Shown here piece after piece: positions 9,634-60,848 of a DNA stretch of 64,000 bases (the stretch's first letter is position 1; each line of letters begins with the position of its first letter). The position numbers and the translations under genes were made by a program. Below the pieces are notes generated by a model. The model ran no database searches. It was given only the letters and a program-made list of their open reading frames with translations, and was not told the origin of the DNA. The DNA is from a virus. Location of the stretch: IMG/VR virus record IMGVR_UViG_3300033508_000321, one strand, 5' to 3'.

Positions 9634-10129
9634 GGTCAGTTAACACTTTTTGAGTGAGCGTATCTGGTAAGAATTTGCCGGATATTTTTATTTCCGTTTT
9701 TTCGATGCCGTTTGCTATGAATGTACCTACTTCGATTTTATCAAGATTCTTAGTGTATTGGATTACCTCGTCAAGTAGTTCATCATTTAAACAGCGTACC
9801 TCTGGCTGTAGCCAATCGTAATGATAGTGGTAAGCCTTCAAAACACCGTCAATAAACTTATAGGTTGATTTTACGATTTTAGGAATTTTCACATCCTTCG
9901 AATAAAAATAAAGTCTGGCGGTGGTAGGTGTGATGCTGTACATATCGGCAACCTCTTTCAAGTGATCCGGGTAGCGAAATGGTTTTTTATCTATGCTGTG
10001 CTGAATAGCTCGATCCCGCATTTCCATTTTTATTGCGTAGATAAGCATACTACGATCTGATACTAAACCGCATTCAATCCCATCCCGGATAGTTGGTACT
10101 GTATCGAAAACAAGCCTATGGTATTTCAT
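9614..10129 (-). CDS. Putative HTH DNA-binding regulator (only convincing minus-strand gene)
   Basis: 171 aa with an ATG start. HTH-like 'LKEVADMYSITPTTARLYF'. Convergent 20-nt overlap with 8926-9633. Divergent from 10233 across a 103-bp AT-rich gap that carries a 12-bp inverted repeat. Confidence 0.6.
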   Translation of the reverse strand: MKYHRLVFDTVPTIRDGIECGLVSDRSMLIYAIKMEMRDRAIQHSIDKKPFRYPDHLKEVADMYSITPTTARLYFYSKDVKIPKIVKSTYKFIDGVLKAYHYHYDWLQPEVRCLNDELLDEVIQYTKNLDKIEVGTFIANGIEKTEIKISGKFLPDTLTQKVLTDLKSAFE

Positions 10130-10157
10130 GAAAAATATTTTTTTGTAAAATTAAGTG

Positions 10158-10221
10158 AATTTTAACAAAAATGTATAAAAATTTTGTATCGGGCACGCTA
10201 AGAATTTACTTTGTTAAAATT
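10158..10221. repeat. 12-bp perfect inverted repeat AATTTTAACAAA / TTTGTTAAAATT in the divergent control region
   Basis: Arms at 10158-10169 and 10210-10221 with a 40-bp spacer. Each arm contains the TTAACAA half-site. Confidence 0.8.
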
Positions 10222-10232
10222 TTGTTATTGAT

Positions 10233-22083: not shown

Positions 22084-22154
22084 TGCGGGATAGTGTAATG
22101 GTAAAACGCTGGTCTCATAAGCCAAAGCTGGTAGTTCGATTCTATCTCCCGCAA
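22084..22154 (+). tRNA. tRNA with anticodon CAU (Met, or Ile2 if lysidine-modified)
   Basis: Hand fold: acceptor TGCGGGA/TCCCGCA, D-loop with GG, anticodon loop CUCAUAA, T-arm GGTAG-TTCGATT-CTATC, discriminator A. 71 nt, no encoded CCA. Confidence 0.75.
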
Positions 22155-22194
22155 CTTAGATTCATCCTAAGTTTGTTTTTCTGTTAGGTTTTAG

Positions 22195-26375: not shown

Positions 26376-26499
26376 AAAAAATGTAAAAATTTTGTGCATT
26401 TTTTACACATATTAAAAATATGTGTTCTATGTGGGCAAAATCTATATTTTTAACAAATCAATAACAAAGTAGTTAACAACCCTTTAACAATTGATGATT

Positions 26500-26507
26500 T
26501 AAATTTG
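26500..26507 (+). promoter_or_regulatory. TAnnTTTG box upstream of dut, preceded by a phased TTAACAA pair
   Basis: TAAATTTG. TTAACAA sits at 26473 and 26484, and the pair ends 9 nt before the box, the same spacing as in the three cassettes. Confidence 0.5.
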
Positions 26508-32248: not shown

Positions 32249-32289
32249 ATTATTAACAACCAGTTAACAAATCACTAGCTATAAATTTA

Positions 32290-32297
32290 TACTTTTG
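32290..32297 (+). promoter_or_regulatory. TAnnTTTG box upstream of the SSB-like gene
   Basis: TACTTTTG. A TTAACAA pair at 32253 and 32264 lies upstream. Confidence 0.45.
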
Positions 32298-32345: not shown

Positions 32346-33023
32346 ATGAAACCAGTACAAAAAAGTACACAAAACGAACAACCCACTTCATGGGATGATT
32401 TACGGAAAAAAGCAGAATCCACAGGCTTTAAAAAACGTGAGGACGAAAACGGATTCTCAAAAGAAACCACAAATTTCTACGTTAGTGCGGACGACGGTAA
32501 AGCCGAAATTGTATTACTTGACCCCGGCACGTTTCCGCTAACCGTTCGGGTACACAACGTGAAAATGAAAAGTAAAAACGGGAAGGAGTATTACCATACC
32601 GAAACCTGCCAGAAATCAGAGCAAGATCATTGCACGTTATGTGATGCAAAAAAAGCGGGAAATGGTGCGATTAGCGATGCATACGATGTATTCGCATTCA
32701 CAGTGCTCGACCTTCGTGGTAAACGTGCCGAAGACGGAAAATTTGATGGCGAACCAACACCCCTAATTTGGATGGCGACCAAAAAAATGCTGATGCAGCT
32801 AATCGAATTGAAAGAGCAATACGAAGACCTTAGTGGTTTGGTGCTCGAGGTAAAGCGCCTGAACAAAGACACCTATGTAACGGTGAAGATGGAGAAAGAT
32901 CCAAAAAACCCACGTGTTCAACGCATGGTACAGTGGGAAGAAGAACTACCGGTTGCGCTACCAAATCGTGATTTCCTTTGGGAAGCACAAAGTGATAAGG
33001 ATCTAGCTTGGTTACTAAAATAG
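32346..33023 (+). CDS. Putative ssDNA-binding protein (T4 gp32-like zinc site)
   Basis: 'AEIVLLDPGTFPLTVRVHNVKMKSKNGKEYYHTETCQKSEQDHCTLC' parallels T4 gp32 'AVIRFLPS...[29 protein letters not shown]' (from memory). It has its own promoter and terminator. Confidence 0.5.
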   Translation: MKPVQKSTQNEQPTSWDDLRKKAESTGFKKREDENGFSKETTNFYVSADDGKAEIVLLDPGTFPLTVRVHNVKMKSKNGKEYYHTETCQKSEQDHCTLCDAKKAGNGAISDAYDVFAFTVLDLRGKRAEDGKFDGEPTPLIWMATKKMLMQLIELKEQYEDLSGLVLEVKRLNKDTYVTVKMEKDPKNPRVQRMVQWEEELPVALPNRDFLWEAQSDKDLAWLLK

Positions 33024-36724: not shown

Positions 36725-36923
36725 TGTAGTGAGTAAAGATCACGAATTTGAGATTAAGTACACCGATGCTGCCAGTTATAAGTTGAACATCTCAGACCTT
36801 GAGAAACTAGAGCGCAAATGTAGTATGAACCGTGAGCCGGTCTTTTTGGTGGAATTCCGTCAAATTGGTAAGACCTATGCCATAGTAGAATTAGGATATT
36901 TAGAAACTCTGGTTAAGTTTTAA
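36594..36923 (+). CDS. Small PD-(D/E)xK nuclease, Holliday-junction-resolvase-like (start uncertain)
   Basis: It has the E...SG...D...ExK arrangement: 'ELKLAKRLQG', 'NSGA', 'NDVV', 'FEIKY'. ATG 36594 overlaps the recombinase gene by 131 nt. An alternative start is TTG 36657. Confidence 0.5.
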   Translation: MENHWLQAQEKPSRKQSQKQELKLAKRLQGKVTANSGAAKNQNDVVSKDHEFEIKYTDAASYKLNISDLEKLERKCSMNREPVFLVEFRQIGKTYAIVELGYLETLVKF

Positions 36924-37068
36924 CAACTTATTTACAATTTTAGGAAACTTTGTTAAAAACTTGTTAATTTCTTATAGATTTTAACAAATCATTAACAAAG
37001 TTTCCTTTTATAATTTATTGGTGTTTAACAACTTATTAACAAATGCTGCTTTATCTTTGTTGTATAAA
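36920..37068 (+). repeat. 149-bp intergenic cassette, copy A
   Basis: Direct repeat at 36920-36937 and 37025-37042. Inverted arms AGGAAACTTTGTTAA 36942-36956 and TTAACAAAGTTTCCT 36992-37006. TATCTTTG at 37052-37059. Confidence 0.9.
37052..37059 (+). promoter_or_regulatory. TAnnTTTG box of cassette A
   Basis: TATCTTTG at cassette offset 132. Confidence 0.5.
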
Positions 37069-37102: not shown

Positions 37103-38263
37103 ATGACAACAATCAATTTCAACCCAAAACGAACCACTCAGGTTAAAGACGATTTTCGTTTTTACAAAGTAATAGAATCAGCCTTTGAAATTAAGGCAGA
37201 GGAGGTAGCAATACCTTACGAAACGGTGTATTCGAGTCGTACGGGTATGACCATGGCAATCAGAGCACGCATCCCCGCCGATGTACGTATAGTAGATTGT
37301 GAAACCCAGCGTACGAAATTCAACGACAAAATTTCACTGTCACAAATAGGACGCAAAGGCACACCAATGATTATCCTACATGAATGGAAAGATAGTCAAA
37401 CCGTAACCTTTGCAATCAGCGAAGCAAAGTACGGTATATGGAAACAAGCAGAAACTGAACTCAATGTTTTCTGTATATACAAGTCCGACAACACAAAGGA
37501 TCATACATATCAACTTAATGTTCACACTTGTAAGAGGGATAACCTCCGTGAGCTGCATCGCATAATAAGCCCTATGGCTGGGTTTGACCAGCCAAAAATA
37601 GGTGAGGAGTCAATAAGTATATTCAAAAACTTGGTAGTTGACCGCTTCGATGATTATTTCATCACATCGAAGGGGTGTGCGTACTACAAGTTTGGCAGGT
37701 ACAATCCGCTGGTGGAGTTCGATATGCTAATTCCCGGAAATGATTATTGGGAAGTTGCGAACGAGACAGGAATGGATGAGCGTACGTACAACGTATTGAA
37801 GCGCATGCGTACTGAGTTTACGGTGGTTACATATGGTATGCTATATGCCGAAATAACCATGACCCACCTTGAAATAGGTGAGGATTTTGCTGTATTTACA
37901 AATGGTAAAAAACAGCTATATATCTACGAAGGCAGTACACAGTACTATGAGTACGAGGATGAAAAAGGCGAATGCACAGCATCTGAAATGCGTTACAGCT
38001 GCCGCAAAAAAGAAATTTTTTACTTGCGTAGCCAGAATGACGCCGCAAGAATTTTAGAAAAAATAAATAGTATATCAGACGATACCGTTTTTACGGTAAC
38101 TGATTCGTATCTTGCTGGTAACTGCGCGGTTGGTACCAGCAATTTTATGAAAAAATATAATTTAAAAAGCCCCATCAGTATTGGTGACCTAAGGCAGCAC
38201 CCTCAGTATGTCGAGTTGCTAAGTAACGCTAGATTTCTAGCGGTGCTAGTTGGGAAAGAGTAG
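37103..38263 (+). CDS. Hypothetical protein (cargo of cassette A)
   Basis: 386 aa. No motif recognised. Bracketed by cassette A and the GGGGCGAAAGCCCC hairpin. Confidence 0.7.
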   Translation: MTTINFNPKRTTQVKDDFRFYKVIESAFEIKAEEVAIPYETVYSSRTGMTMAIRARIPADVRIVDCETQRTKFNDKISLSQIGRKGTPMIILHEWKDSQTVTFAISEAKYGIWKQAETELNVFCIYKSDNTKDHTYQLNVHTCKRDNLRELHRIISPMAGFDQPKIGEESISIFKNLVVDRFDDYFITSKGCAYYKFGRYNPLVEFDMLIPGNDYWEVANETGMDERTYNVLKRMRTEFTVVTYGMLYAEITMTHLEIGEDFAVFTNGKKQLYIYEGSTQYYEYEDEKGECTASEMRYSCRKKEIFYLRSQNDAARILEKINSISDDTVFTVTDSYLAGNCAVGTSNFMKKYNLKSPISIGDLRQHPQYVELLSNARFLAVLVGKE

Positions 38264-38271
38264 TAAAAAAC

Positions 38272-38288
38272 GGGGCGAAAGCCCCTTT
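38272..38288 (+). terminator. GNRA-loop hairpin terminator GGGGC-GAAA-GCCCC (copy 1 of 3)
   Basis: Identical 14-mer at 38272, 54228 and 58956, here followed by TTT. Confidence 0.6.
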
Positions 38289-44688: not shown

Positions 44689-45041
44689 CACTTGACCCAA
44701 ATAGTACTCTCAGCGATTACTATTCAATGTTTTGTGCTGACGCACAAATTACAAATAAGAAAAACACCATGAAAACAATGACTCGGACAGAAAAAAGAAA
44801 TACTTTATTACTTGCTAAAGTAACAGTAAGCCCACTAACGGTGGAATCAGAGAAAGCCTTTTTTAAAAGCCGGGTTAAAGAGCAGCATTTAGCTCTTATT
44901 GTGACTGATGATAACCTTTGGAAAGGATACCAGAGTTACAACGCTCTGATGAAAGAATCGGGTGATACCGATTACAAACACCTAACTTCTAAAGAAGTAT
45001 TAGTACTGAGGGAGGAAATAAAAAAGGAATTTAACTTATGA
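44673..45041 (+). CDS. Hypothetical protein
   Basis: 122 aa. Its ATG is nested in the C-terminal motif of member 4. Confidence 0.5.
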   Translation: MRSEITLDPNSTLSDYYSMFCADAQITNKKNTMKTMTRTEKRNTLLLAKVTVSPLTVESEKAFFKSRVKEQHLALIVTDDNLWKGYQSYNALMKESGDTDYKHLTSKEVLVLREEIKKEFNL

Positions 45042-45421: not shown

Positions 45422-46598
45422 CCAGGCAAAAGCATTTGAAAAGCTAAAAACCCTTAAAGTAGGTGCACTTTTCATGTCACCGGGTGCGGGTAAAACCCTA
45501 ACAGCCTTTGAGCTTATTCATAGTGTAGAAGGTATTAACTACGTGTTATGGTTAACACCCTTTCAGACGAAAGAAAATTTGCGCAAAGAATTAACAGAGT
45601 ATGGTGGTTTTGACTTTGCCCATGATGTAGTGGGTATAGAAACACTTTCATCATCTGATGCTGTTTATCTGAAATTAAGTAAGAAGATACAAGAGCATAA
45701 CACATTTATAGTGTGTGATGAAAGCCTGAAAATAAAAAATTTGGCGGCAAAGCGTACCCAAAGAATCCTAGAACTGAGCAAATTTTGTGAGTACAAACTC
45801 ATATTGAATGGTACACCGCTAAGCAAGAATGTAATGGATTTATGGGCACAGTTACAATTCCTTAGCCCTAAAATACTAAATATGCCTTTGGCTCAGTACA
45901 AGAGTGTATTCGTGAAATACACCACCATCACGAAGAAAATAAACGGCTATAAAGTAACAAGGGAGTTTATCGATGGCTACGCCAATATTGATTACCTGTA
46001 CTCACTTATTAAACCCTACGTGTACGAGTGTGACCTTACAGTAAATGTAGAAAAACATTATGTAGAGTACATTTATGAGGTAGGTGAAGAAGCAAAAGAA
46101 GAGTATAACAGGTTAAAAAAGTTCATGTCTGAGCATGAATATTTGCTTTTCAGGAATAACAACGTATTCTTGGAACTGATACAAAACTTACAAATGGCTT
46201 ACTGTACAGTACCTGAAAAATTCGAACTCCTGGGGTGGGTGCTTACTCAGGTAGAACCAAAGAAAACCATTGTTTTTTGTAAATTTATACGTAGTGTTGA
46301 ATCCATTAGTAAGAAATTTCCATACCTTAAAGTACTGACCTACGGTAAACACGCATACGGGTTAAATTTGCAGGAATATAATACGGTTGTATTTTGGGAT
46401 AAAACCTTTGATTATGCGTTACGATTACAAGCCGAAAGGCGTATCTTTAGAACCGGGCAAACTGATATTTGTACGTATTATGACCTAACAGCTAGTACGG
46501 GTTTGGATAACATGATAAACGGAAATATAGAGCGGAAAGAATCCATGCTCAGTTACTTTAAGAAAATAGCATTTAAAACTTTTATTGAAAACTTATGA
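45402..46598 (+). CDS. SNF2-family helicase / ATPase
   Basis: Walker A 'SPGAGKTLTAFE'. 'VCDESLKIKN'. 'LNGTPLSKNVMDLWAQLQFLSP' (SNF2_N). Motif VI 'LQAERRIFRTGQT'. Confidence 0.8.
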   Translation: MMILLDDQAKAFEKLKTLKVGALFMSPGAGKTLTAFELIHSVEGINYVLWLTPFQTKENLRKELTEYGGFDFAHDVVGIETLSSSDAVYLKLSKKIQEHNTFIVCDESLKIKNLAAKRTQRILELSKFCEYKLILNGTPLSKNVMDLWAQLQFLSPKILNMPLAQYKSVFVKYTTITKKINGYKVTREFIDGYANIDYLYSLIKPYVYECDLTVNVEKHYVEYIYEVGEEAKEEYNRLKKFMSEHEYLLFRNNNVFLELIQNLQMAYCTVPEKFELLGWVLTQVEPKKTIVFCKFIRSVESISKKFPYLKVLTYGKHAYGLNLQEYNTVVFWDKTFDYALRLQAERRIFRTGQTDICTYYDLTASTGLDNMINGNIERKESMLSYFKKIAFKTFIENL

Positions 46599-47143
46599 AA
46601 AAAGCAGCGTTTAAAAGCCCTGTGTACAGTGTTGTAGCTGTACCGATTTATAAAATTGAGGCAAATAACTACAATCCAAACCACGTTGCAAAGCGTGAAA
46701 TGGACTTACTCTACCAAAGCATAAAATGTGATGGGTACACTATGCCTATTGTATGTTTCTATGATGATGAAAGGGATAAATACATTATCGTGGATGGTTT
46801 TCACCGTTATACGATTATGCTCAAATACAAAGATATTTTTGAGCGAGAAAATGGTATGTTACCGGTATCAGTTATTCACAAAGATCTAAGTGACCGAATG
46901 GCTTCAACAATTCGTCATAACAGGGCACGAGGTAAACATGAAGTGGAACTGCAAGCATCTTTAGTCGGGATGTTAAAATCTGGGTGGGATGAGCTAAAAA
47001 TAATGAAAGAGCTGGGCATGACCTTAGAAGAAGTACAACGTTTGATAGGTTTACGTGGTATAGCAAGTGAGATAAAAGGTGTACCTTATTCAATCGAACG
47101 CCAAATAATAGAAGCAGGGGAGGACGTTACTGATGAAGATTAA
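46595..47143 (+). CDS. ParB-like nuclease-domain protein (IbrB-like)
   Basis: 'NNYNPNHV', 'IIVDGFHRYTIM' and 'TIRHNRARGKH' fit the ParB/Srx-fold IbrB-type pattern as I recall it. Confidence 0.7.
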   Translation: MKKAAFKSPVYSVVAVPIYKIEANNYNPNHVAKREMDLLYQSIKCDGYTMPIVCFYDDERDKYIIVDGFHRYTIMLKYKDIFERENGMLPVSVIHKDLSDRMASTIRHNRARGKHEVELQASLVGMLKSGWDELKIMKELGMTLEEVQRLIGLRGIASEIKGVPYSIERQIIEAGEDVTDED

Positions 47144-47714
47144 ATTTATAGTAATGACCAGCGAGGATCCTAAAAGGATTGAAAATGTACAAAAAATGGA
47201 AATTCCGGACTTAGTAATTTACAGGGGTGATAACGATGACGTATTTCAAAAGTATCTTAATTGTTTTATCCTAGAATCTGAGTATGATGGCGTGCTAGTA
47301 CTTGAGGATGATGTACAACTTTGCTGGGATTTTTATACTAAAGTGTTAGGTATAATTCAAAAATATGCCAGTGATGTGATTAGCTTTTTTGAAAAGCCTA
47401 ATTCTAGACAGGTACTTGAAAAAGGTTTTAGGCCGGGGCGTGACTTTATGTTCAACCAGTGTAATTATTACCCTAAAGCTACATGTGAGTTATTTTTAGG
47501 TTCGGAAAACGTAGCTGAGTTTAAAAACTCATATTTCACTAAATACAAAGTTTGGGTAGCCCCGATCGATATTTACATAGCACACGTGCTAAGTAAATAC
47601 AAGTTAGAGTACCTTATGTACTTACCTTTTTTGGTGCAGCATTTACCCTTTAAATCTATTTTGGGTAACAGGTCTACCAAACGTCAAACCAAATTTTTTA
47701 TAGATGACCTATGA
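47133..47714 (+). CDS. Glycosyltransferase-like protein (GT25-like, tentative)
   Basis: 193 aa. 'IKFIVMTSEDPKRIENVQKM' and 'VLVLEDDVQLCWDF' resemble the GT25 N-terminus and EDD motif. Confidence 0.4.
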   Translation: MKIKFIVMTSEDPKRIENVQKMEIPDLVIYRGDNDDVFQKYLNCFILESEYDGVLVLEDDVQLCWDFYTKVLGIIQKYASDVISFFEKPNSRQVLEKGFRPGRDFMFNQCNYYPKATCELFLGSENVAEFKNSYFTKYKVWVAPIDIYIAHVLSKYKLEYLMYLPFLVQHLPFKSILGNRSTKRQTKFFIDDL

Positions 47715-48868
47715 AAAGAACTACAACGCTGGGCACGGAAAACGTGTTGGAATCTACACTAAAACGTATTGCTTACCTGTTTGATCACTATGATAATATT
47801 TCCTTATCATTCTCTGGTGGTAAAGATAGCACTGCTTTGTTTCATTTGGTGAATAACGAGGCTGTGAAACGTGATAGGAAATTTATTCTATACTTTCAAG
47901 ATCAGGAAGCAGAGTATCAGGGTACTATTGACCTAATGGAATGGGCTATGACTAGGCCAAACGTAATACCACTTTGGTATCAAGTACCGATTTTTATGAC
48001 CAATGCAGCTAGTCACCAACAACTATTTTTGTGGGCGTGGGGTGAGGGTGAAAAATGGGTGCGAGAAAAGCATCCGATGGCCATACAATCTATTGATGGA
48101 AAATATCCTAAGCGGTTTTATAAGTTTAACTTGTGGGTAGGTCAGCAACTAAGAAAATTGCCCGGAAATCATGTATCAATAATCGGATTAAGAGCCGAAG
48201 AAAGCCCTGATAGACGTTTTGTGATGTTTGGCGAAGACAGTGATTTGTTTTGGTTACGTAGAAAAACAGAGCCACATAAAGCATATCCTATTATTGATTG
48301 GGCATATACCGATGTGTGGAAGTACCTTATTGAAGGTAGTTACAGGTACAATAACGTGTATGATAAGATGTATATGCTAGGTGGTAATTTACGCCAATTC
48401 AGGGTTTCAAATTTGGTGCATGAAAAGGCATTCCGGTGTTTAACTGATTTGCAGGAATTAGAACCTGAAACGTATGATAAGTTAGAAGAACGTTTGCAGG
48501 GTGTACATACGGCAGCTATCTATGGCAAAGAAGCCTTGATTTATTCGATAAAAACCTTACCGGAAAGTTTTAAAACATGGAAAGAGTACAAGGATTTTCT
48601 ACTAAGTAGTATACACCCAGACCTGAGCAAATTGTTTCGTTATCAATGGTCACGTTTTGGTGATACGGACGATGTACGAGCTTGTAAATACATGGTAAAA
48701 CGTATTCTATTATGCGACTGGGAGGGTAACATCAAAGAACAGGATTGGATGAAATACTACCCTGAGTGGACTGTTAATAAATTCAACTACACCAAGGAAC
48801 AGATACTAGAAAAAAATAGGCAGAAACGTGAAGATCCAGTAATAAATAAATGGATGGCCAAGCTGTGA
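47711..48868 (+). CDS. PAPS reductase-family PP-loop protein (IbrA / DndC-like)
   Basis: PP-loop 'LSFSGGKDSTALFHL'. 'IIGLRAEESPDRR'. A long C-terminal extension follows. Confidence 0.75.
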   Translation: MKRTTTLGTENVLESTLKRIAYLFDHYDNISLSFSGGKDSTALFHLVNNEAVKRDRKFILYFQDQEAEYQGTIDLMEWAMTRPNVIPLWYQVPIFMTNAASHQQLFLWAWGEGEKWVREKHPMAIQSIDGKYPKRFYKFNLWVGQQLRKLPGNHVSIIGLRAEESPDRRFVMFGEDSDLFWLRRKTEPHKAYPIIDWAYTDVWKYLIEGSYRYNNVYDKMYMLGGNLRQFRVSNLVHEKAFRCLTDLQELEPETYDKLEERLQGVHTAAIYGKEALIYSIKTLPESFKTWKEYKDFLLSSIHPDLSKLFRYQWSRFGDTDDVRACKYMVKRILLCDWEGNIKEQDWMKYYPEWTVNKFNYTKEQILEKNRQKREDPVINKWMAKL

Positions 48869-48874
48869 AATGTT

Positions 48875-48906
48875 AAAACGCTGCTTAATTGCAGCGTTTT
48901 TTATTA
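48875..48906 (+). terminator. Rho-independent terminator
   Basis: AAAACGCTGC-ttaatt-GCAGCGTTTT followed by a T-rich run. Confidence 0.7.
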
Positions 48907-48926
48907 TTTTTGTTAAAATAAATGCA

Positions 48927-48934
48927 TAGATTTG
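48927..48934 (+). promoter_or_regulatory. TAnnTTTG box
   Basis: TAGATTTG, 17 nt upstream of ATG 48952. It lies inside the longer track ORF that starts at 48922. Confidence 0.45.
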
Positions 48935-48951
48935 TAAAAATTTTACATTTT

Positions 48952-49827
48952 ATGGACATAAACGAATTAAAAGAACTCATAAAACCCGCTTTTGCAAGCG
49001 TCGGTAAACTACCAAAAGAAGAGGCGAAGAACTACGGTAATTACAAATTGATGCCGGTAGAGATATTGGTGAAAGCGGGTTGGAATTACAAGCAAGAAAA
49101 CCCGTATACGAGTGATAAACTAAACGCTAATTTAAAGCGTAACGGGCAGGTAGAAAATATACAAGTACGATTACTTGATACAGGTTACTACGAGGTAGTA
49201 AATGGTAACCACCGCTTAGATGAAATCATAAAACTTGGGCGCAAAATGGTGGTGGTTTATGACCATGGAAAAGTAAGTTTAGCCGAGGCGAAGCGTATTG
49301 CCATTGAAACAAACGAAACGAAATTTAAAGCGGAAGAAACGCTTTTGGCGGAAGCAATCCGAGAACTCGAAGCAGAATTTGGCTTAGAAGACCTAGAGCA
49401 AACATTACCATTCTCGGATGAAGAAATGGAAAAAATGATGTCGGAAATGGATTCTGAGTTTGAGGAACCAACACAGGGTAATTATACACGCAAGATTGAA
49501 TCGCCTACCTATGAGCCAAAGAATGAAAAACCGCACACCATAGACTTGTACGACAAAAGCAAGTATGAGCAACTTTTAGAGGGTATAGAGGGTAGCTCAG
49601 CAGATCCAGAGGTTAAGATGTTTCTAAAAATTGCGGCGGCAAGGCACATAGTTTTTGACTATTCTAAGATAGCCGATTTTTATGCGCACAGCGATGCACA
49701 GGTACAACGTTTGATGGAGGATTCAGCACTCGTAATTATAGACTTTAATAGAGCTATTGAGCTAGGTTTTGTGCAGTTATCGGAGAATATAGCAAAACAA
49801 TACACAGAGGATTATGGAAAAGCCTAA
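48952..49827 (+). CDS. ParB-like nuclease-domain protein (second copy) with acidic linker and C-terminal domain
   Basis: 'YYEVVNGNHRLDEI' (DGxHR-type motif). I prefer ATG 48952 because the box at 48927 sits inside the alternative start at 48922. Confidence 0.65.
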   Translation: MDINELKELIKPAFASVGKLPKEEAKNYGNYKLMPVEILVKAGWNYKQENPYTSDKLNANLKRNGQVENIQVRLLDTGYYEVVNGNHRLDEIIKLGRKMVVVYDHGKVSLAEAKRIAIETNETKFKAEETLLAEAIRELEAEFGLEDLEQTLPFSDEEMEKMMSEMDSEFEEPTQGNYTRKIESPTYEPKNEKPHTIDLYDKSKYEQLLEGIEGSSADPEVKMFLKIAAARHIVFDYSKIADFYAHSDAQVQRLMEDSALVIIDFNRAIELGFVQLSENIAKQYTEDYGKA

Positions 49828-50677
49828 AGATTTTTGCATTTTTATTATCTCACATGGTAGGCCTGATAAGGTAATGACGTGGAATACTTTGAAAAAAGTT
49901 GGTAATACATCACCAGTTTACATTGTTATAGATGATACGGATAAAACATCGGAAAAATACTACACTAATTTCGGTAAAGAAACAGTAGTGATGTTCGATA
50001 AAGAAGCGATAGCCAAAACTACGGATCATGGAGATAATTTTTGGAACCTACGCACAACTACTCACGCACGAAATGCTTGCTTCGACATAGCTAAAAAATT
50101 AGGGTACACGTACTTTTTAGTGCTAGACGATGATTATACCTACTTTGCGTACACGGCAGACGATGCCTTTAACTACAATAGTAAGGGCACACCAGTAAAA
50201 GATATAAATAAAACTTTTTGTTTGTTTATCGATTTTTACAAGAGTATTCCAGCACTTAGTGTATGTTTTGCTCAAGGGGGCGACTTTGTGGGCGGCGAAA
50301 ATTCTGCTGTATTTAAAAAAGAACTATCAAGAAAGGCTATGAACTCGTGGTTTTGTTCTGTAGATCGCCCCTTTAAATTCATAAGTAGGTTGAATGAGGA
50401 TGTTAACACTTACTTGTGTCTGGGTGCCACAGGCGGTTTATTCTTTACAGTTACGTGGATAAGACTTGAGCAGATACAAACGCAGCTAAATTCAGGTGGA
50501 ATGACGGAGGCATACCTAGAAGGTGGTACATACGTAAAATCATTCTACACAGTGATGTACTGTCCATCTTTTGCTAAGGTAGGATTAATGGGTAACACCA
50601 ATAAAAGGTTGCACCATAGAATATCATGGAATAATGCAGTACCTAAGATTGTAAATGAAAATATTAGAAAAATATGA
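49814..50677 (+). CDS. GT-A-like glycosyltransferase candidate (DxD motif)
   Basis: 287 aa. 'FIISHGRPDKVMTWNTLKK', 'YIVIDDTD' and 'FLVLDDDYTYF'. The assignment is tentative. Confidence 0.4.
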   Translation: MEKPKDFCIFIISHGRPDKVMTWNTLKKVGNTSPVYIVIDDTDKTSEKYYTNFGKETVVMFDKEAIAKTTDHGDNFWNLRTTTHARNACFDIAKKLGYTYFLVLDDDYTYFAYTADDAFNYNSKGTPVKDINKTFCLFIDFYKSIPALSVCFAQGGDFVGGENSAVFKKELSRKAMNSWFCSVDRPFKFISRLNEDVNTYLCLGATGGLFFTVTWIRLEQIQTQLNSGGMTEAYLEGGTYVKSFYTVMYCPSFAKVGLMGNTNKRLHHRISWNNAVPKIVNENIRKI

Positions 50678-51168
50678 AAAAGAAAGAAAAAATTTGGGCG
50701 GAGGTTCAACCAAAAATATACGATGAAAAATACCACGATATAAAGATGGAAGAATTGGTGATGGAAGGGTTAACGTTGCAAGAAATTGCAGAAAAATTGG
50801 CGGTAGAATATCGAACATTAACAAAATGGTTAGTACGTTACCCATCACTGGCAGAAGCATTCAATCGTGGACGTATACCGAGAGATTTGGCGGTGGAAAA
50901 TGCCCTTTACAAGAGAGCTATTGGATATACGTATGAAGAAAAAATAGCTGAGTCAACTGGTACGATGGAGGAGGCGGAGGGGAAAAAAAGGGCGGGAAAA
51001 TTCCGAAGAGTAACAAAACATATGCCACCAGATGTAGAAGCAATAAAGATGTGGTTAAGTAATAAAAAACCACACCTGTGGTCAAACACTCAAAAGATAG
51101 ATGTAACATCGAAAGGACAACAAATGCCGATTGTAATGATAGGTGCACCACCGGAAGAGGAAAAATAG
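50674..51168 (+). CDS. Terminase small subunit-like HTH protein (gp3-type), or a regulator
   Basis: HTH 'LTLQEIAEKLAVEYRTLTKWL'. 'ALYKRAIGYTYEE' and 'PPDVEAIKMWLSNKKPHLW' fit small-terminase patterns. It lies 12.4 kb upstream of the terL start in this window. Confidence 0.45.
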   Translation: MKKKEKIWAEVQPKIYDEKYHDIKMEELVMEGLTLQEIAEKLAVEYRTLTKWLVRYPSLAEAFNRGRIPRDLAVENALYKRAIGYTYEEKIAESTGTMEEAEGKKRAGKFRRVTKHMPPDVEAIKMWLSNKKPHLWSNTQKIDVTSKGQQMPIVMIGAPPEEEK

Positions 51169-51301: not shown

Positions 51302-51336
51302 CCTGTTAGAGTGTTACAAACTTTAACAGGTTTTTT
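51302..51336 (+). terminator. Hairpin plus T-run in the 260-bp non-coding gap
   Basis: CCTGTTA-(15 nt)-TAACAGG followed by TTTTTTAATTTT. Confidence 0.4.
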
Positions 51337-51427
51337 AATTTTGTATGCTGATAATTAACAAGCTATTAACAATAAGTAAAAAGTTAATTAACTATTTTTA
51401 CATGGTCACTAAATATGTTAAAAACCG

Positions 51428-52898: not shown

Positions 52899-53146
52899 AG
52901 AAGAAAAAATCGGCAAAAGATAGGGTACTCAAAATGGCGTACCCTGTAGCCGATAAAAGGGTAAGCGGAAAAGACCTTTTAGAGCAGGGTTTAATCTTGC
53001 GAAAATTTAAACGCAAAATGCTATGTTTTGCAGAACTCACAACCGGCGAAACGCTGGTAATACCTGAAGCATTTTTTAACATGATAAACCTGCATAAAAA
53101 TGACCGAAAACGAAAAGAATCTGCTCAATCAAATAGCAGGCCTTAA
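52883..53146 (+). CDS. Hypothetical protein (start uncertain: GTG 52883 or ATG 52934)
   Basis: 87 or 70 aa. Basic C-terminus. Confidence 0.4.
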   Translation: MAGILEKKKSAKDRVLKMAYPVADKRVSGKDLLEQGLILRKFKRKMLCFAELTTGETLVIPEAFFNMINLHKNDRKRKESAQSNSRP

Positions 53147-53357
53147 AGATGAAATTACCATGCTCGAGTATGAGCTGGCAAGGCTAAAAGTGGAAAAAAT
53201 GAGCTTTAATACTATGCTGCAATCCGAGTTAAAAAAGCAAAGATTCCTGATAGCAGAAAAAGCGGACGTGAAACAAGAAGTATTACCTGATGAAACCGTA
53301 GTATGGGTAGTAGACAAAGATTCAATTTATAATAACCCTTTAATACTGATGAAATGA
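53100..53357 (+). CDS. Hypothetical coiled-coil protein
   Basis: 85 aa with an ATG start. Confidence 0.45.
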   Translation: MTENEKNLLNQIAGLKDEITMLEYELARLKVEKMSFNTMLQSELKKQRFLIAEKADVKQEVLPDETVVWVVDKDSIYNNPLILMK

Positions 53358-53734
53358 GCACACGTGCCTACATAGCAAGAAAAATAGATGATGGTTTTGA
53401 GTACATCTACTGCCACAATTCCGGTGAAGAAGACATAGCAGTATTGATAGACGATTACGGTACTGATGAAAAGGTAAAAGAACTAATATCCCTTGGTGAC
53501 ATTTCATCTTTGGGCTCGAAAGTAATCCCAAACCCAGGAAGACGTCACACATTCGAACATCCACAAAAAGACGTAACCGTAGCCTATTACCGAGACCGCA
53601 ACGAAGGCTGGTTACGAGTGAAACCGGGCAGAGTACCAGCGTTACACGAGCTGTTAGGTATAGCAGAAAGAGGAGGAATAGACTTTGTGTTTACATTTGA
53701 CAATGGTGTATGGGCTAGTTATGAGATAGTTTAA
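53354..53734 (+). CDS. Hypothetical protein
   Basis: 126 aa. ATGA overlap. Its stop lies inside the first direct repeat of cassette B. Confidence 0.55.
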   Translation: MSTRAYIARKIDDGFEYIYCHNSGEEDIAVLIDDYGTDEKVKELISLGDISSLGSKVIPNPGRRHTFEHPQKDVTVAYYRDRNEGWLRVKPGRVPALHELLGIAERGGIDFVFTFDNGVWASYEIV

Positions 53735-53879
53735 CAACTTATTTACAAATTGAGGAAACTTTGTTAAAAACTTGTTAATTTCTTATAGATTTTAACAAAT
53801 CATTAACAAAGTTTCCTTTTACAATTTTCTGGGTGTTAACAACTTATTAACAAATGTTACTTTATCTTTGTTGTATAAA
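53731..53879 (+). repeat. 149-bp intergenic cassette, copy B
   Basis: Same offsets as copy A: arms at 53753-53767 and 53803-53817, TATCTTTG at 53863-53870. The identical leader CAAATAAGAAAAACAC is shared with copy C. Confidence 0.9.
53863..53870 (+). promoter_or_regulatory. TAnnTTTG box of cassette B
   Basis: TATCTTTG, 26 nt before ATG 53897. Confidence 0.5.
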
Positions 53880-53896
53880 CAAATAAGAAAAACACA

Positions 53897-54220
53897 ATGG
53901 AAACTCAATTAGCAATCAGAACCAGACAACAAGAAATAGCTCAAACTATACTGGAACAACTAGGTGGATTAAATCGTTTAAATGCGATGTTAGGCTTAAA
54001 AGACTTGATGGTAAACGGTTATGGCCTCAGTTTCAAAATCAGCGTAAAAGCAGCCGCAAACTATGTAAACATCACATTAACCAGTGATGGTCTGTACTAC
54101 GTAGAATTGGGTAAAATTCGTGGCAAATCTTACAACATAGTAGCTAACTTTCAAGGCGTGTATGCTGACCAATTGAAAAGCATAATCGAAGATACAGCAA
54201 AAGTAAGACTATCATTATAA
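53897..54220 (+). CDS. Hypothetical protein (cargo of cassette B)
   Basis: 107 aa. Bracketed by cassette B and the GGGGCGAAAGCCCC hairpin. Confidence 0.65.
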   Translation: METQLAIRTRQQEIAQTILEQLGGLNRLNAMLGLKDLMVNGYGLSFKISVKAAANYVNITLTSDGLYYVELGKIRGKSYNIVANFQGVYADQLKSIIEDTAKVRLSL

Positions 54221-54227
54221 AAACAAA

Positions 54228-54241
54228 GGGGCGAAAGCCCC
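54228..54241 (+). terminator. GNRA-loop hairpin GGGGC-GAAA-GCCCC (copy 2 of 3)
   Basis: Identical 14-mer. The T-tract after this copy is weak. Confidence 0.45.
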
Positions 54242-54270
54242 TACTTAAAACAACAGAAAAACACCAGAGC

Positions 54271-54432
54271 ATGAAAACTTTTGAAATCGAATTTACTACC
54301 TTAGGTGGTAACACGCAATCAGTATTGGTAGACGCTTACTCGCAGCTACAAGCAATTCGCACATTTGAGAAAAACTATGCGGTGGATGAGATACTGAACA
54401 TTGAAGAAATAGAAATCCCAGAAATAGACTAA
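54271..54432 (+). CDS. Hypothetical 53-aa protein (not in the ORF track)
   Basis: ATG 54271 to TAA 54430-54432. 'MKTFEIEFTTLGGNTQSVLVDAYSQLQAIRTFEKNYAVDEILNIEEIEIPEID', hand translated. It fills the gap before the methyltransferase gene. Confidence 0.45.
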   Translation: MKTFEIEFTTLGGNTQSVLVDAYSQLQAIRTFEKNYAVDEILNIEEIEIPEID

Positions 54433-54433
54433 T

Positions 54434-55939
54434 ATGTGGAATCAAGATTTTTTCCCCACGCCGGCAGAGGTAGTATCACAGATGCTACTCGGTGAGGATT
54501 TAATCGGCAAAATAATTTTAGAGCCTTCAGCAGGTAAAGGTAACATAGTGGACATATTGGTAGAACGTGGTGCAAAAGAAGTGTTAGCGTGTGAGCAAGA
54601 ACCACAACTACGTAGAATACTCAAAGGCTGCAAAATCTTAGCCGCTGATTTTCTCACTCTTACCAGTGAGGCTGTTAGCCACATTGACTACATCATAGCA
54701 AACCCACCGTTTTCAGAGCAAGAAAAGCACATACAGCACATGATCGATATAGCACCCGATGGTTGCATCATTGTAACGTTGTGCAACTCGAATTTAACAA
54801 ACGCAAATACTACCTCACGCCATAGAATAATGAGCTACGCAAGTCAGTATGGCTATTCGCAGGATTTGGGTAGCGTTTTTAGTGATGCTGAGCGCACAAC
54901 GGATGTAAGCGTTTCAATGCTCAAAATTTTTAAACCGAAAACGGCGGAAAATGAGTTTGATGGGTATTTCGAATTAGACGATACACCAGAGGAGGATGGC
55001 GAAGGCATTATGAGCTATTCAATCATTCGGGAGTTCGTTAACCGATACGTAGGTGCGATAAAAGATTTTGACTCAGTATACGAAGCCCAAAAGCGGATGA
55101 ATAACCTAATACAGCCATTCAATAGCAGTATCGTTTTTTCCGCTCACGATGACAAAACACCACTAACACGTGAAGCATTCAAAAAGCAATTACAAAAAGC
55201 GGCGTGGAAAATGATTTTTTCGAAAATGGATATGCATAAGTACACTACCGAAAAGCTAATGACGCAGTTAAATAAATTCGTAGAACGTCAGCAACACGTG
55301 CCCTTTACCGTTAAAAATGTGTGGAAAATGATCGACATGATTGTCGGTACACATGATTCCCGGATGCAGTCTTTAATCGTAGAAATCTTTGATAAAATCA
55401 CAGCACACACACCCGATAATAAACTGGTGCAAGAAGGGTGGAAAACCAACAGCGAGTATATTGTTAACAAGCGATTTATTCTACCTTCGCACGATGTTCG
55501 AATGGGTTACAACGGTAAACCGGATTGGAACTGGAACCGAAATAATTATTTCTTAGATGACCTCACAAAAGCACTTAGGCTTGTAATGGGCAACGAGTTG
55601 GGAAAAGCAGCGAGAGCGGAATTTATTAAGTTAGAAGGTATACGTCCGGTGCAATGGTATGCCGTTGGTAGCTGCAAATGTATGCTTGAAAATGATGGTA
55701 CAATTCGTGAAGAACCCTTGGGATTCTCAGAGGTAATAAAATCGGCGGAATGGGGTGAGTGGTGTAGTTTCGGATACATAAAATTCAGATGCTACAAGAA
55801 GGGTACAGTACACGTGGAATTTCAAACAGAAGAAGTTTGGGCAAAATTTAACAACGTAGCAGCAAAAGCAAAAGGATTTCAGTTAGCAAGCAATTTCAAA
55901 CCAAATACTAAAAAGAATGGAAATAAGTTTAATTCCTAA
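54434..55939 (+). CDS. N6-adenine DNA methyltransferase with a roughly 300-aa C-terminal extension
   Basis: Motif I 'ILEPSAGKGN'. Motif IV 'IIANPPFSEQ'. Confidence 0.75.
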   Translation: MWNQDFFPTPAEVVSQMLLGEDLIGKIILEPSAGKGNIVDILVERGAKEVLACEQEPQLRRILKGCKILAADFLTLTSEAVSHIDYIIANPPFSEQEKHIQHMIDIAPDGCIIVTLCNSNLTNANTTSRHRIMSYASQYGYSQDLGSVFSDAERTTDVSVSMLKIFKPKTAENEFDGYFELDDTPEEDGEGIMSYSIIREFVNRYVGAIKDFDSVYEAQKRMNNLIQPFNSSIVFSAHDDKTPLTREAFKKQLQKAAWKMIFSKMDMHKYTTEKLMTQLNKFVERQQHVPFTVKNVWKMIDMIVGTHDSRMQSLIVEIFDKITAHTPDNKLVQEGWKTNSEYIVNKRFILPSHDVRMGYNGKPDWNWNRNNYFLDDLTKALRLVMGNELGKAARAEFIKLEGIRPVQWYAVGSCKCMLENDGTIREEPLGFSEVIKSAEWGEWCSFGYIKFRCYKKGTVHVEFQTEEVWAKFNNVAAKAKGFQLASNFKPNTKKNGNKFNS

Positions 55940-56132
55940 AAGTGGGTACGAGCACATGATAAAATTTGCGGTGCAACGTGGTGAGGTAGAAAATACAATC
56001 TACTATACCGATGGCACAATAGGCATAGAGGTAGAACCTGACGAGGCGGATGCTCAGGTAGCGTACATAAAAACGGTGCTGCTTAAGTACGATGTTTCGG
56101 AAAACGATTACACTTTGAGATATGAGCCTTAG
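55917..56132 (+). CDS. Hypothetical protein
   Basis: 71 aa. Overlaps the upstream gene by 23 nt. Confidence 0.4.
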   Translation: MEISLIPKSGYEHMIKFAVQRGEVENTIYYTDGTIGIEVEPDEADAQVAYIKTVLLKYDVSENDYTLRYEP

Positions 56133-57627: not shown

Positions 57628-58446
57628 ATGAAAGTAGAAATTTTAGCAGATTCACTGCACCGAGGCCACCGCCTCACCACTTTCCGACTCACGTTTCCTC
57701 AAATCATAGTAAAGGAAATGCTTCGGCATAGAATGTTTTCTTTCGCAAGTCTGAGTATGCGGGCTATTGGCTTAGATAGAAACATAGAAAAAATAAAGGC
57801 GGATATGTGGCGACCTTTGAGCTGGTTACCTGAGCACAAAGGTATGTGTACTGATGAGGTAATTGAAAACCGGGAAGAACTGGACGAGCTACATAATGAG
57901 CTATTCCAAATCACTATGCGATACGTAAGACAGTTGCAGCAAAGAAACGTATCCCACCAAATCGTTAACCGGTACATAGAACATTTCGGGCAAGTGCAGA
58001 TGATTGTATCAGCAACCGAATGGGAAAACTTCTACAAGTTACGCAGGGGTAAACGTGCTGAGCAGCACATAAAACTTTTGGCGGAAACGATGTACGATGC
58101 TCAAAATACGAGTACACCATACACGTCCGATGACCGCTTCTGGCATATGCCATTCGTTGGTGGTATAGAAGAAAACGTGGCGAAAGTAGCACGTGTTTCG
58201 TTTAGTCAAGATAAGGTATTCACACCAGAGGAAAATAAAAACTTGTACAAGAAACTTTTAGCAAGCGGTGAAATGTCACCATTTGAACACGTGGCCGTGG
58301 CAATGGGTAGCCGTTACTATGATTATTCACGAACCGTTACCGGTGGTTTAGAGCATGGATGGGATAAAAATTTCCGTGGTTTTATTTCTCTTCGCACGCT
58401 GGTGGAAAACCCTTTGAACGTAGACTACGTGGAAATGGCAGTGTAG
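57628..58446 (+). CDS. thyX: Flavin-dependent thymidylate synthase
   Basis: Exact ThyX signature RHRxxSxxxxSxR in 'LRHRMFSFASLSMRA'. 272 aa. Confidence 0.85.
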   Translation: MKVEILADSLHRGHRLTTFRLTFPQIIVKEMLRHRMFSFASLSMRAIGLDRNIEKIKADMWRPLSWLPEHKGMCTDEVIENREELDELHNELFQITMRYVRQLQQRNVSHQIVNRYIEHFGQVQMIVSATEWENFYKLRRGKRAEQHIKLLAETMYDAQNTSTPYTSDDRFWHMPFVGGIEENVAKVARVSFSQDKVFTPEENKNLYKKLLASGEMSPFEHVAVAMGSRYYDYSRTVTGGLEHGWDKNFRGFISLRTLVENPLNVDYVEMAV

Positions 58447-58448
58447 TT

Positions 58449-58597
58449 TTAACAACTTATTTACAATTAAAGGAAACTTTGTTAAAAACTTGTTAATTTC
58501 TAATAGATTTTAACAAATCATTAACAAAGTTTCCTTTTATAATTTATTGGTGTTTAACAACTTATTAACAAATGATGCTTTATCTTTGTTGTATAAA
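58449..58597 (+). repeat. 149-bp intergenic cassette, copy C
   Basis: Same offsets as the other copies: arms at 58471-58485 and 58521-58535, TATCTTTG at 58581-58588. Confidence 0.9.
58581..58588 (+). promoter_or_regulatory. TAnnTTTG box of cassette C
   Basis: TATCTTTG, 26 nt before ATG 58615. Confidence 0.5.
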
Positions 58598-58614
58598 CAA
58601 ATAAGAAAAACACC

Positions 58615-58941
58615 ATGAGAACTTTAACAAGCAGTTTCACAAGATTAGAGGAAAACACACTTTTTTCCGCTGAATTTCAACAAGCATTAACAGAAGTGCA
58701 AAATATGGTACTGGGATTAAGCCCAATGAAAGCCGAACAGGGAAAGTTATACGCAGCGGAAGCAGCCGGGGAACTTTCCGAGTACGAGGTTGACAAGCTG
58801 GTAGAAACTACCATAGTTGAGCACAAGAAATTCACGGCAAAGTTCTACAAATTGGAACTTAACGATGATGACCAAGGGCAGTATTCAGCTACCGAGGGTG
58901 CGTTTTTTGCCTCCGGTGTAGCCACACTAACAATATACTAG
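58615..58941 (+). CDS. Hypothetical protein (cargo of cassette C)
   Basis: 108 aa. Bracketed by cassette C and the GGGGCGAAAGCCCC hairpin. Confidence 0.65.
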   Translation: MRTLTSSFTRLEENTLFSAEFQQALTEVQNMVLGLSPMKAEQGKLYAAEAAGELSEYEVDKLVETTIVEHKKFTAKFYKLELNDDDQGQYSATEGAFFASGVATLTIY

Positions 58942-58955: not shown

Positions 58956-58972
58956 GGGGCGAAAGCCCCTTT
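58956..58972 (+). terminator. GNRA-loop hairpin GGGGC-GAAA-GCCCC (copy 3 of 3)
   Basis: Identical 14-mer followed by TTT. Confidence 0.6.
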
Positions 58973-60292: not shown

Positions 60293-60423
60293 AAGGCATT
60301 ATACCGCACCTGAGCACGTATGATGCTACGCATCTGCTACAGCAAGTAGAAAGCCTGTATGGTCGGAAAACCATTGAAGAAGCCATCTTATTTTTACAAA
60401 TGACTTACACCGGCAGAGTATGA
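60250..60423 (+). CDS. Hypothetical 57-aa protein (not in the ORF track)
   Basis: ATG 60250 to TGA 60421-60423. The stop overlaps the next ATG (ATGAATG). 'MDTISKEEFIEAVLKGIIPHLSTYDATHLLQQVESLYGRKTIEEAILFLQMTYTGRV'. Confidence 0.4.
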   Translation: MDTISKEEFIEAVLKGIIPHLSTYDATHLLQQVESLYGRKTIEEAILFLQMTYTGRV

Positions 60424-60848
60424 ATGATGCAATGTTTAGCAGTAAGAGGCATGACTACGAAACACCGTTGGATTTTTTCGCTTTGCTCAATGAGCAGTAC
60501 TTCTTCGATTTGGATGTGTGTGCAAGCAGTGCAAATACCAAGTGCTCGAATTTCTTTTCGGTAGATGATAACGGTCTGGAAAAAGAATGGTACGGAACGT
60601 GTTGGATGAATCCACCCTATGGTCGTGAAATCGGGAAATGGGTAGCAAAAGCGGCAAGCGAAGCCGAGAAAGGAATTACCATTGTAGCGTTGCTACCTGC
60701 CAGACCAGACACGAAATGGTTTCACCAACACATCTACGGTAAACACGAAATACAGTTTATCAAAGGGCGTCTAAAATTTGTTGGTGCCCCTAGCTCAGCC
60801 CCGTTTCCTTCAATGCTCGTAATATTTCGCAAAGAATGGAAGCAGTAA
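60420..60848 (+). CDS. Phage-type N6-adenine DNA methyltransferase (Dam-like small family)
   Basis: 'YETPLDFF', 'DVCAS', 'WMNPPYGREIGKWVAKA' (NPPY), 'LLPARPDTKWFH'. Confidence 0.8.
   Translation: MNDAMFSSKRHDYETPLDFFALLNEQYFFDLDVCASSANTKCSNFFSVDDNGLEKEWYGTCWMNPPYGREIGKWVAKAASEAEKGITIVALLPARPDTKWFHQHIYGKHEIQFIKGRLKFVGAPSSAPFPSMLVIFRKEWKQ

Follow-up and report, generated by a model that had tools for sequence, protein, structure and literature searches.

The phage sequence analysed here, a single stretch of 64,000 nt from IMG/VR virus record IMGVR_UViG_3300033508_000321 (hereafter the window), contains a gene for a 107-aa protein that is preceded by a repeated intergenic sequence, designated copy B, and followed by a short GC-rich hairpin. 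We hold with moderate confidence that copy B belongs to a set of four composite regulatory cassettes in this phage that are almost the same in sequence, that the promoters carrying the repeated heptamer TTAACAA are co-regulated, and that the cargo gene of copy B is a strongly expressed first cistron. An initial annotation had drawn attention to this region, and its description of the repeat, the spacing and the open reading frame (ORF) was upheld, with the extent of the leader, the terminator and the orphan status of the gene requiring correction.

The window covers most of a phage genome of approximately 66.2 kb, since its end is bridged to its start by contig L001 (IMG/VR, 11.1 kb; also GenBank JFJP01044535), which is 99% identical to the window and contains the 2.2 kb of the genome located outside it. 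Three cassettes are located in the window and the fourth, shortened copy D was found in L001 (Table 1). Over the 151 nt of the conserved core, copy A is identical to copy B at 140 positions (93%) and to copy C at 147, and copies B and C share 138 (91%), in agreement with the earlier observation that copy B is built like copy A. The start of copy B overlaps the TAA stop codon (53732-53734) of the upstream ORF (53354-53734), and copy D adjoins the large terminase gene, directly 3′ of it. Copy D lacks 44 nt; the deletion falls exactly between its third and fourth repeat units, which are internal direct repeats, and fuses them. The four cargo genes are unrelated to each other (386, 107, 108 and 51 aa for copies A to D, the last with a GTG start at 7130-7285 of L001), and have in common the same frame of 5′ cassette and 3′ hairpin. 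No homologue of cargos A and C was found in Pfam, PHROGs, NCBIfam, PADLOC or GenBank phages; both look like true ORFans and are predicted to be, probably, highly expressed, and ORFans make up three of the four cargos. A search of positions 53300-54700 against Rfam gave only meaningless sub-threshold matches to microRNA hairpins, which ruled out a riboswitch or small RNA, and a mobile element resembling a miniature inverted-repeat transposable element was rejected as the cassette ends are direct rather than inverted repeats and there are no target-site duplications.

The building block of the cassettes is a 19-nt bipartite element, TTAACAA-N4-TTAACAA(A), consisting of two heptamers at 11-nt spacing with an invariant C at position 5. 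The window contains 15 such elements versus 0.08 expected (one mismatch allowed), all of them intergenic and 5′ of genes. Every cassette has four elements, units 3 and 4 being fused in copy D, and outside the cassettes the element was detected at 26450, 32253 and 51355, with further sites recognised by eye at 26473, 26944, 51244 and 51264. About six of the approximately 14 intergenic promoters carry the element, and all six are in, or at the edge of, the half of the genome devoted to replication and nucleotide metabolism. Units 2 and 3 are part of an imperfect palindrome with arms of 31 nt that are 84% complementary. As RNA this would fold into a hairpin with a free energy of -27 kcal/mol (z = -7.8), and behind it lies the T-rich tail TTTTACAATTTTC (to ~53830; the T-run is also given as UUUUACAAUUUUC). 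This palindrome is a candidate terminator or attenuator of upstream transcription, a candidate palindromic operator, or both. The tandem units in front of the dUTPase gene may represent a simple promoter of the cassette class, without the palindrome.

Intergenic regions of this genome contain TAnnTTTG boxes and lack Shine-Dalgarno sequences, and from these signals the host is judged to be a member of the Bacteroidetes; the promoter consensus, the numbering (T-12 to G-5 in Flavobacterium johnsoniae) and the translation-initiation rules used here are those of PMC6847099. In copies A, B, C and D, a spacer of 8 nt separates unit 4 from a perfect TAHHTTTG box downstream, and the unit at 26473 has the same arrangement. 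Transcription from copy B is predicted to start at ~53875, with equivalent predicted starts at 37064 (A) and 58593 (C). Numbered from this start as in F. johnsoniae, the unit 4 heptamers are at -39/-33 and -28/-22. No -33 element (TTTG or TTG, 17-23 nt upstream of the -7 box) was recognised, with no TTG in 53834-53850, and unit 4, TTAACAACTTATTAACAAA, takes up the -33 region of copy B. The tRNA-Met gene (22084-22155), in contrast, has a canonical promoter at 22067 consisting of TTG, a 20-nt spacer and TATCTTTG. The Flavobacterium -33 element is weak, and in F. johnsoniae it is less pronounced than the AT-rich motifs at -18 and -28 (PMC6847099). A sigma-70 promoter scan returned nothing at the cassette, the host not being an organism with sigma-70 -35/-10 promoters. 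The -7 box ends at 53870 in copy B and at 58588 in copy C, with the ATG codons at 53897 and 58615, and thus the box-to-ATG distance is exactly 26 nt in both, as first annotated. The strong-looking promoter proposed at that stage also agrees with our data, as the perfect -7 box, the unstructured A-rich leader and the conserved 3′ hairpin fit what would be a strongly expressed first cistron.

The leader of copy B extends over 22 nt from the predicted start to the ATG, and together with the first codons folds at only -0.4 kcal/mol. It has adenines at -3, -6 and -12, which favour initiation in F. johnsoniae (PMC6847099). Three matches to its 16-nt A-rich sequence CAAATAAGAAAAACAC were found in the window, all exact, versus 0.3 expected (up to 2 mismatches). 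Copies B and C had been reported to share this leader right up to the start codon, which is correct for the 16 nt and not for position -1, where copy B has an A and copy C a C. The third match (44752-44767) is followed by an ATG at 44769 and has neither a cassette nor a -7 box, pointing to a reusable module for translation initiation and not to a part of the promoter. Positions 44751-44776, ACAAATAAGAAAAACACCATGAAAAC, are identical to copy C in 25 of 26 nt including the ATG and the next codons, and suggest that the true start of this gene is the ATG at 44769 (91 aa) rather than 44673.

The 14-nt core of the GC hairpin, GGGGCGAAAGCCCC, is identical after all four cargos (three in the window and one in L001), 7-14 nt 3′ of the stop codons, and has three exact matches in the window versus ~0.1 expected (up to 2 mismatches). 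Its stem of 5-6 GC pairs with a GAAA loop folds at -11.4 to -12.6 kcal/mol, with copy B at -12.6 (z = -4.9). A U-run directly behind the stem is absent in copies B (CCCCTACTTAAAA) and D (CCCCTTACG) and consists of only TTT in copies A and C; the other terminators of this genome have long T-runs, and a terminator scan called the hairpin on the minus strand only. The next genes begin 29 nt (B) and 16 nt (C) after the hairpin, and the box scan gave no -7 box between hairpin and next gene in either copy. Because copy B has no U-tract and the downstream genes are without a promoter, the hairpin is more likely to be an attenuator or partial terminator, or a stabiliser of the mRNA 3′ end, than a full terminator. 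The gene had been credited with its own terminator, of which the hairpin is indeed present, and the U-tract in copy B and a promoter for the genes behind it are not. These downstream cistrons, a 53-aa ORF and a DNA methyltransferase with a DUF4942 domain, are probably co-transcribed from cassette B, as predicted from this arrangement; PHROG matches of the methyltransferase include giant multidomain proteins.

Table 1. Coordinates of the cassettes, their component parts and related features; positions refer to the window unless a contig is named
Feature	Position	Strand	Description
Cassette copy A	36918..37068	+	Longer, different leader; drives 386-aa ORFan 37103-38263; hairpin 38272-38285
Cassette copy B	53729..53879	+	151-nt conserved core; drives 107-aa coding sequence
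Cassette copy C	58447..58597	+	Drives 108-aa ORFan 58615-58941; hairpin 58956-58969
Cassette copy D	L001 6975-7082	+	Shortened, outside window; with cargo and hairpin to 7304 (genome ~65126-65455)
Unit 1 (copy B)	53731-53749	+	TTAACAActtaTTTACAAa; heptamers 11 nt apart; overlaps stop codon of upstream ORF
Palindrome (copy B)	53753-53817	+	65 nt, AT-rich, imperfect; contains units 2 and 3
Unit 2 (copy B)	53760-53778	inverted	Left arm of palindrome
Unit 3 (copy B)	53792-53810	+	Right arm of palindrome
Unit 4 (copy B)	53836-53854	+	TTAACAActtaTTAACAAa; ~-39 to -21 from predicted transcription start; in -33 region
-7 box (copy B)	53863-53870	+	TATCTTTG; perfect match to Bacteroidetes sigma-A consensus TAnnTTTG/TAHHTTTG; 8 nt after unit 4
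Leader (copy B)	53880-53895	+	CAAATAAGAAAAACAC; 16 nt, A-rich, without Shine-Dalgarno sequence; exact in copy C at 58598-58613
Coding sequence, 107 aa	53897..54220	+	phrog_9437 member; uncharacterised alpha/beta domain
GC hairpin (copy B)	54227-54242	+	AGGGGCGAAAGCCCCT; GAAA tetraloop; core 14-mer GGGGCGAAAGCCCC at 54228-54241, 7 nt after stop codon
Downstream cistrons	54271..55939	+	53-aa ORF (54271-54432); 501-aa N6-adenine methyltransferase with DUF4942
Simple promoter site	26450..26507	+	Two tandem TTAACAA units, 8 nt, then TAAATTTG; before dUTPase gene
Single TTAACAA unit	32253..32297	+	18 nt upstream of TACTTTTG; before ORF 32346-33023
Single TTAACAA unit	51355..51373	+	Intergenic region downstream of small terminase gene; just downstream of -7 box at 51336
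Phased arrays	L122 ~390-470; L126 ~3340-3422; L137 ~4739-4800	minus (L137)	Phage-like contigs

The cargo of copy B does consist of the 107-aa ORF that was originally delimited, yet it is not the orphan it was taken for, as the family of the protein is a large one. A match to phrog_9437 (E = 3e-20) was obtained, tblastn gave matches in 50 GenBank phages, and an exhaustive HMMER search gave 1931 cluster representatives of the family at E <= 0.001, with a phage range that includes KVP40-like vibriophages, pelagiphages, and Rhizobium, Rhodobacter, Pseudomonas and Tunturiibacter phages. Neither Pfam nor NCBIfam has a model that fits the protein, Pfam was likewise blank for 29 family members, and a profile search returned only matches annotated as "hypothetical protein". 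A single-sequence AlphaFold model was discarded as unusable (predicted local distance difference test, pLDDT, 46), and prediction with a 29-sequence alignment gave a confident model (pLDDT 90) comprising two helices at the N-terminus, five antiparallel strands that form a sheet, and a helix at the C-terminus. Sequence comparison with the PDB gave nothing better than E = 0.28, Foldseek against the PDB found no solved structure (best frataxin, E = 0.05, template modelling score 0.39) and against BFVD only uncharacterised phage proteins, and the PADLOC library of defence-system proteins did not contain a match. The remote-homology and structure searches that had been put forward as a check of an anti-defence role thus revealed no characterised anti-defence protein in PDB, BFVD or PADLOC that resembles the 107-aa protein in sequence or fold. 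The conserved positions of the family (QLGG, AMxGA, an Asn, DxY and a C-terminal LSL) do not look catalytic, and the domain appears non-enzymatic.

The family is not restricted to single-domain proteins, since 82 of the 150 best representatives have a length of 300 aa or more, with the domain being one module among others. Pfam partners in the 74 long proteins scanned were RadC-JAB (3), LPD11 (2), DUF5661 (2), ArdA (1), ART-PolyVal (1) and RelA_SpoT (1), amongst others. By their domain architecture, these multidomain homologues are polyvalent proteins as defined by Iyer et al. (2017, PMC5512222), who argued that polyvalent-protein domains, including their solo forms, aid the early invasion phase. 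As with the LPD domains named in that study, the 107-aa domain occurs solo in phages and as a module beside LPD11, RadC-JAB, ArdA and ART-PolyVal, but it matches no LPD model in Pfam, the comparison being with Pfam models only; LPD10, which is reported to associate with LPD11, would be a candidate among the LPDs that have no Pfam entry. Multidomain homologues such as P0060 (1285 aa) display modules of ~90-150 aa divided by short linkers with a GG motif (KGG, DGG, EGG), a polyprotein-like layout that might be subject to processing.

The solo gene is located among small hypothetical genes in non-structural regions of annotated phages, and in the window it precedes the 53-aa ORF and the DNA methyltransferase-DUF4942 gene. 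A 62%-identical homologue on another Bacteroidetes phage contig has a terminator, a TATCTTTG promoter, the gene and a canonical terminator, with no TTAACAA units. The suggested function in host takeover or anti-defence gains indirect support, by association, from the polyvalent partners and the methyltransferase neighbour, and finds no counterpart in a match to a characterised anti-defence protein. The 107-aa protein would most likely act in the host conflict of early infection, in a binding or helper role.

Outside this phage the cassette itself was not recovered. GenBank phages have no DNA match to positions 53000-56000 (cassette B, cargo and flanks), exact and degenerate cassette patterns searched in IMG/VR and the metagenome collection returned only L001, and a search for relatives via the neighbouring methyltransferase gave seven loci, none with other common genes or TTAACAA units. 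The only close matches in the collections searched were near-identical contigs from other samples, without cargo differences, and no diverged collinear relatives were found. The contigs derive from JGI samples 3300002026 (contig names beginning with MIS; also GenBank JFJP01), 3300033514 and 3300033516. The simpler pattern of a unit, 9 nt and TAnnTTTG had 22 matches in 596 Gb of bacterial and archaeal genomes, which is near a rough chance estimate, and therefore the element is not a general feature of host promoters. In IMG/VR the same pattern is present in seven contigs besides L001. Two of these (L122 and L126), and in addition contig L137, which was binned with a Flavobacterium metagenome-assembled genome (MAG), go beyond what the pattern demands, with four TTAACAA/TTAACAT heptamers in 11-nt phase directly before TAnnTTTG; the proximal unit of L137 equals cassette unit 4 over 20 nt. 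The available stretches of these three contigs have no detectable proteins in common with the window, indicating a promoter type used by several unrelated phages. Contig L145, binned with a Methanimicrococcus MAG, contains at ~1030-1110 the tandem repeat TTAACAAGAAT in four exact copies and a fifth lacking one base, directly before a TAnnTTTG-like box. A Bacteroidetes-style promoter is unexpected there, and L145 may be a mis-binned phage contig.

Taken together, we propose that the cassette, beginning on the stop codon of the upstream gene, would attenuate or end incoming transcription by means of its 65-nt palindrome and T-run, acting as an RNA hairpin. A promoter of host sigma-A type would follow, with the perfect TATCTTTG box at -7 and TTAACAA-N4-TTAACAA in place of the -33 region, and with three more elements upstream, two of which make the palindrome. 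A sequence-specific factor would bind the element and coordinate the promoters of this class, the cassettes being high-occupancy versions of the TTAACAA promoters. Transcription from ~53875 would then produce an unstructured 22-nt A-rich leader suited to Bacteroidetes ribosomes, with the 107-aa gene as the first cistron of an operon, and the GC hairpin may raise the level of cargo mRNA over that of the read-through transcript, which includes the 53-aa gene and the methyltransferase gene. The shared frame of 5′ cassette and 3′ hairpin could work like the promoter-early stem-loop (PeSL) cassettes discussed below.

Several observations weigh against this model. No DNA-binding regulator was found in the window, where the sole clear helix-turn-helix protein nearby (50674-51168) was rejected as the TTAACAA regulator because it is the small terminase subunit, and the other small ORFs around it had no matches at the thresholds used in the search for regulators. 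A phage-encoded RNA polymerase, as a separate hypothesis, was dismissed, with no homologue among the ORFs scanned and with the largest ORF of the window (671 aa) being the DNA polymerase. The position of the element also varies, as it is downstream of the predicted start at the 51336 site and 10 nt further upstream at 32253. The operator units and the hairpin arms are the same bases, so that sequence cannot separate a terminator from an operator, and promoter strength, timing and termination are all predicted from consensus matches and folding. No diverged relatives were found from which covariation, or shuffling through indels, could be read. The role given to the 107-aa protein is read from domain co-occurrence only, and the phased TTAACAA promoters of unrelated phages are equally compatible with a host polymerase that recognises them directly and with a phage factor.

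The host-polymerase alternative would make the arrays UP-element-like or curvature elements that are read directly by host RNA polymerase, giving constitutive and very strong early promoters, and we regard it as possible, if on the unlikely side. The heptamers are phased at 11 bp on the same face of the helix, with units 3 and 4 being 33 and 44 nt apart, the AT-rich motifs at -18/-28 outweigh the -33 element in F. johnsoniae (PMC6847099), and both the four-heptamer arrays before TAnnTTTG in L122, L126 and L137, which have no detectable proteins in common with the window, and the lack of a regulator candidate in the window are readily accommodated. However, the near-chance frequency of the arrangement in bacterial genomes (22 in 596 Gb) implies that it is not employed by strong host promoters. 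Moreover, one of the units has the opposite orientation, units 1 and 2 do not share the phase of units 3 and 4, and the element is sequence-specific, with its invariant C at position 5, rather than merely AT-rich.

The factor-based model has a parallel in bacteriophage T4. The middle promoters of T4 have a MotA box at -30 that replaces the -35 element. The TTAACAA promoters similarly keep the host-type downstream element and have the upstream one replaced by a class-specific phage sequence, in front of replication and nucleotide-metabolism genes, but no MotA or AsiA homologue or other regulator was identified here, and the element consists of two directly repeated heptamers, with up to four units per promoter. 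The likeness would concern the working principle only. Extended to its limit, TTAACAA would define a distinct promoter class in diverse phages of Flavobacteriia-like hosts, in which a box recognised by a phage-encoded factor or an appropriated host protein stands in for the -33 contact, as a Bacteroidetes counterpart of the MotA/AsiA-type sigma appropriation of T4; the cassettes would be high-affinity versions that double as PeSL-like recombination modules, and the cargos would be co-regulated host-conflict factors. We consider this extension unlikely.

It is also improbable, in our estimation, that the cassette is mainly a recombination module, a mobile promoter/terminator pair for swapping or capturing small genes in which the TTAACAA repeats are incidental. 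Such pairs have a precedent in the PeSL cassettes of T4-type phages (Arbiol et al. 2010, PMC2839356; Comeau et al. 2014, PMC4122927), and the four unrelated cargos between an identical 5′ cassette and 3′ hairpin, the three ORFans among them, and the deletion in copy D, exactly between direct repeats, are all as expected for a module of this kind. Against it, there are four copies versus ~50 PeSLs per T4-type genome, cargo differences among near-identical contigs and diverged relatives were not found, and TTAACAA also stands alone at ordinary promoters and is thus not incidental.

PeSLs are the closest known analogue of the cassette, which by the same comparison is not a member of the PeSL family. 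Both are repeated intergenic composites of a strong host-type promoter and a stem-loop able to stop upstream transcription (predicted, in the present case), spanning from the upstream stop codon to the downstream start codon, mostly located before small genes of unknown function, and with repeated ends that could support recombination. A host primary-sigma promoter is represented in all copies by TATCTTTG, as a consensus match to TAHHTTTG, and the stable stem-loop next to it by 53753-53817 followed by TTTTACAATTTTC, as judged by folding. As to the cassette-bounded indels and mini-circles of PeSLs, the contigs available for comparison were near-identical, and the single event observed was the internal deletion in copy D. 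Unlike the ~50 short and loosely conserved PeSLs, this phage has four near-identical cassettes of ~150 nt and approximately four simple sites, with a Bacteroidetes -7 promoter instead of sigma-70 -35/-10, an AT-rich stem-loop made of heptamers that recur at other promoters, and a separate conserved GC hairpin that closes the cargo; the phage is not T4-like either, having a Mu-like portal and a ~66-kb genome. Finally, it is highly improbable that the arrays are non-transcriptional, as origin iterons or as sites bound by the small terminase or by some other protein of packaging or partition, since the resemblance of the clustered 19-nt direct and inverted repeats to iterons, the three heptamer sites just downstream of the small terminase gene and the weak ParB_N match encoded at 46595-47143 are outweighed by the presence of at least 8 sites over 40 kb, where origins and pac sites are normally single, and by the fixed 8 nt to a -7 box directly 5′ of a + strand gene in A, B, C, D and at 26473.

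A phage moron is a gene with its own promoter and terminator. The 107-aa gene resembles one as a small accessory-type gene in a frame of promoter and hairpin between genes of the same strand, but in copy B it is followed by a hairpin without a U-tract and the genes behind depend on read-through, which makes it a first cistron rather than an autonomous insert, and the label fits only loosely.

The phage appears to be myovirus-like with a Mu-like portal. Portal, head, tail-sheath and tape-measure genes are located in the first 22 kb of the window, with the remainder encoding helicases, DNA polymerase A, a UvsX-like recombinase, a dUTPase, a ThyX-like protein and several DNA-modification genes. 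All genes are on the + strand, save one candidate minus-strand ORF at 9614-10129 (171 aa, no Pfam or PHROG match), the sole sizeable candidate on that strand; it faces a region of ~100 nt (10130-10232) with -7-like boxes and one TTAACAA heptamer, and might encode a regulator that is transcribed divergently. The gene for the small terminase subunit (phrog_309, E = 1e-33) is located ~12 kb upstream of that for the large subunit (L001 5365-6981), and is followed by an intergenic region with a canonical terminator and three TTAACAA sites. The DNA-modification genes form a dense set (46595-50677, 54434-55939, 57628-58446 and 60420-60848) with the weak ParB_N match, a PAPS-reductase with DUF3440 (47711-48868), a TET-associated glycosyltransferase (49814-50677), the N6-methyltransferase with DUF4942, the ThyX-like protein and Dam, and the phage DNA may be hypermodified. 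The ParB_N match and the PAPS-reductase/DUF3440 protein form a pair that we presume to resemble IbrB/IbrA.

Overall, the picture is one of tidy and fairly ordinary phage gene regulation, which does not overturn current ideas. Very little is known about transcription timing in phages of Bacteroidetes, and a countable element together with four near-identical units of promoter, first gene and hairpin provides a handle on this for reporter assays and for the pull-down of a regulator. The cassettes would also represent ready-made strong expression parts for Flavobacteriia, and the 107-aa family, with 1931 representatives, no Pfam entry and no solved structure, and found near anti-restriction domains, is a reasonable candidate for anti-defence screening.

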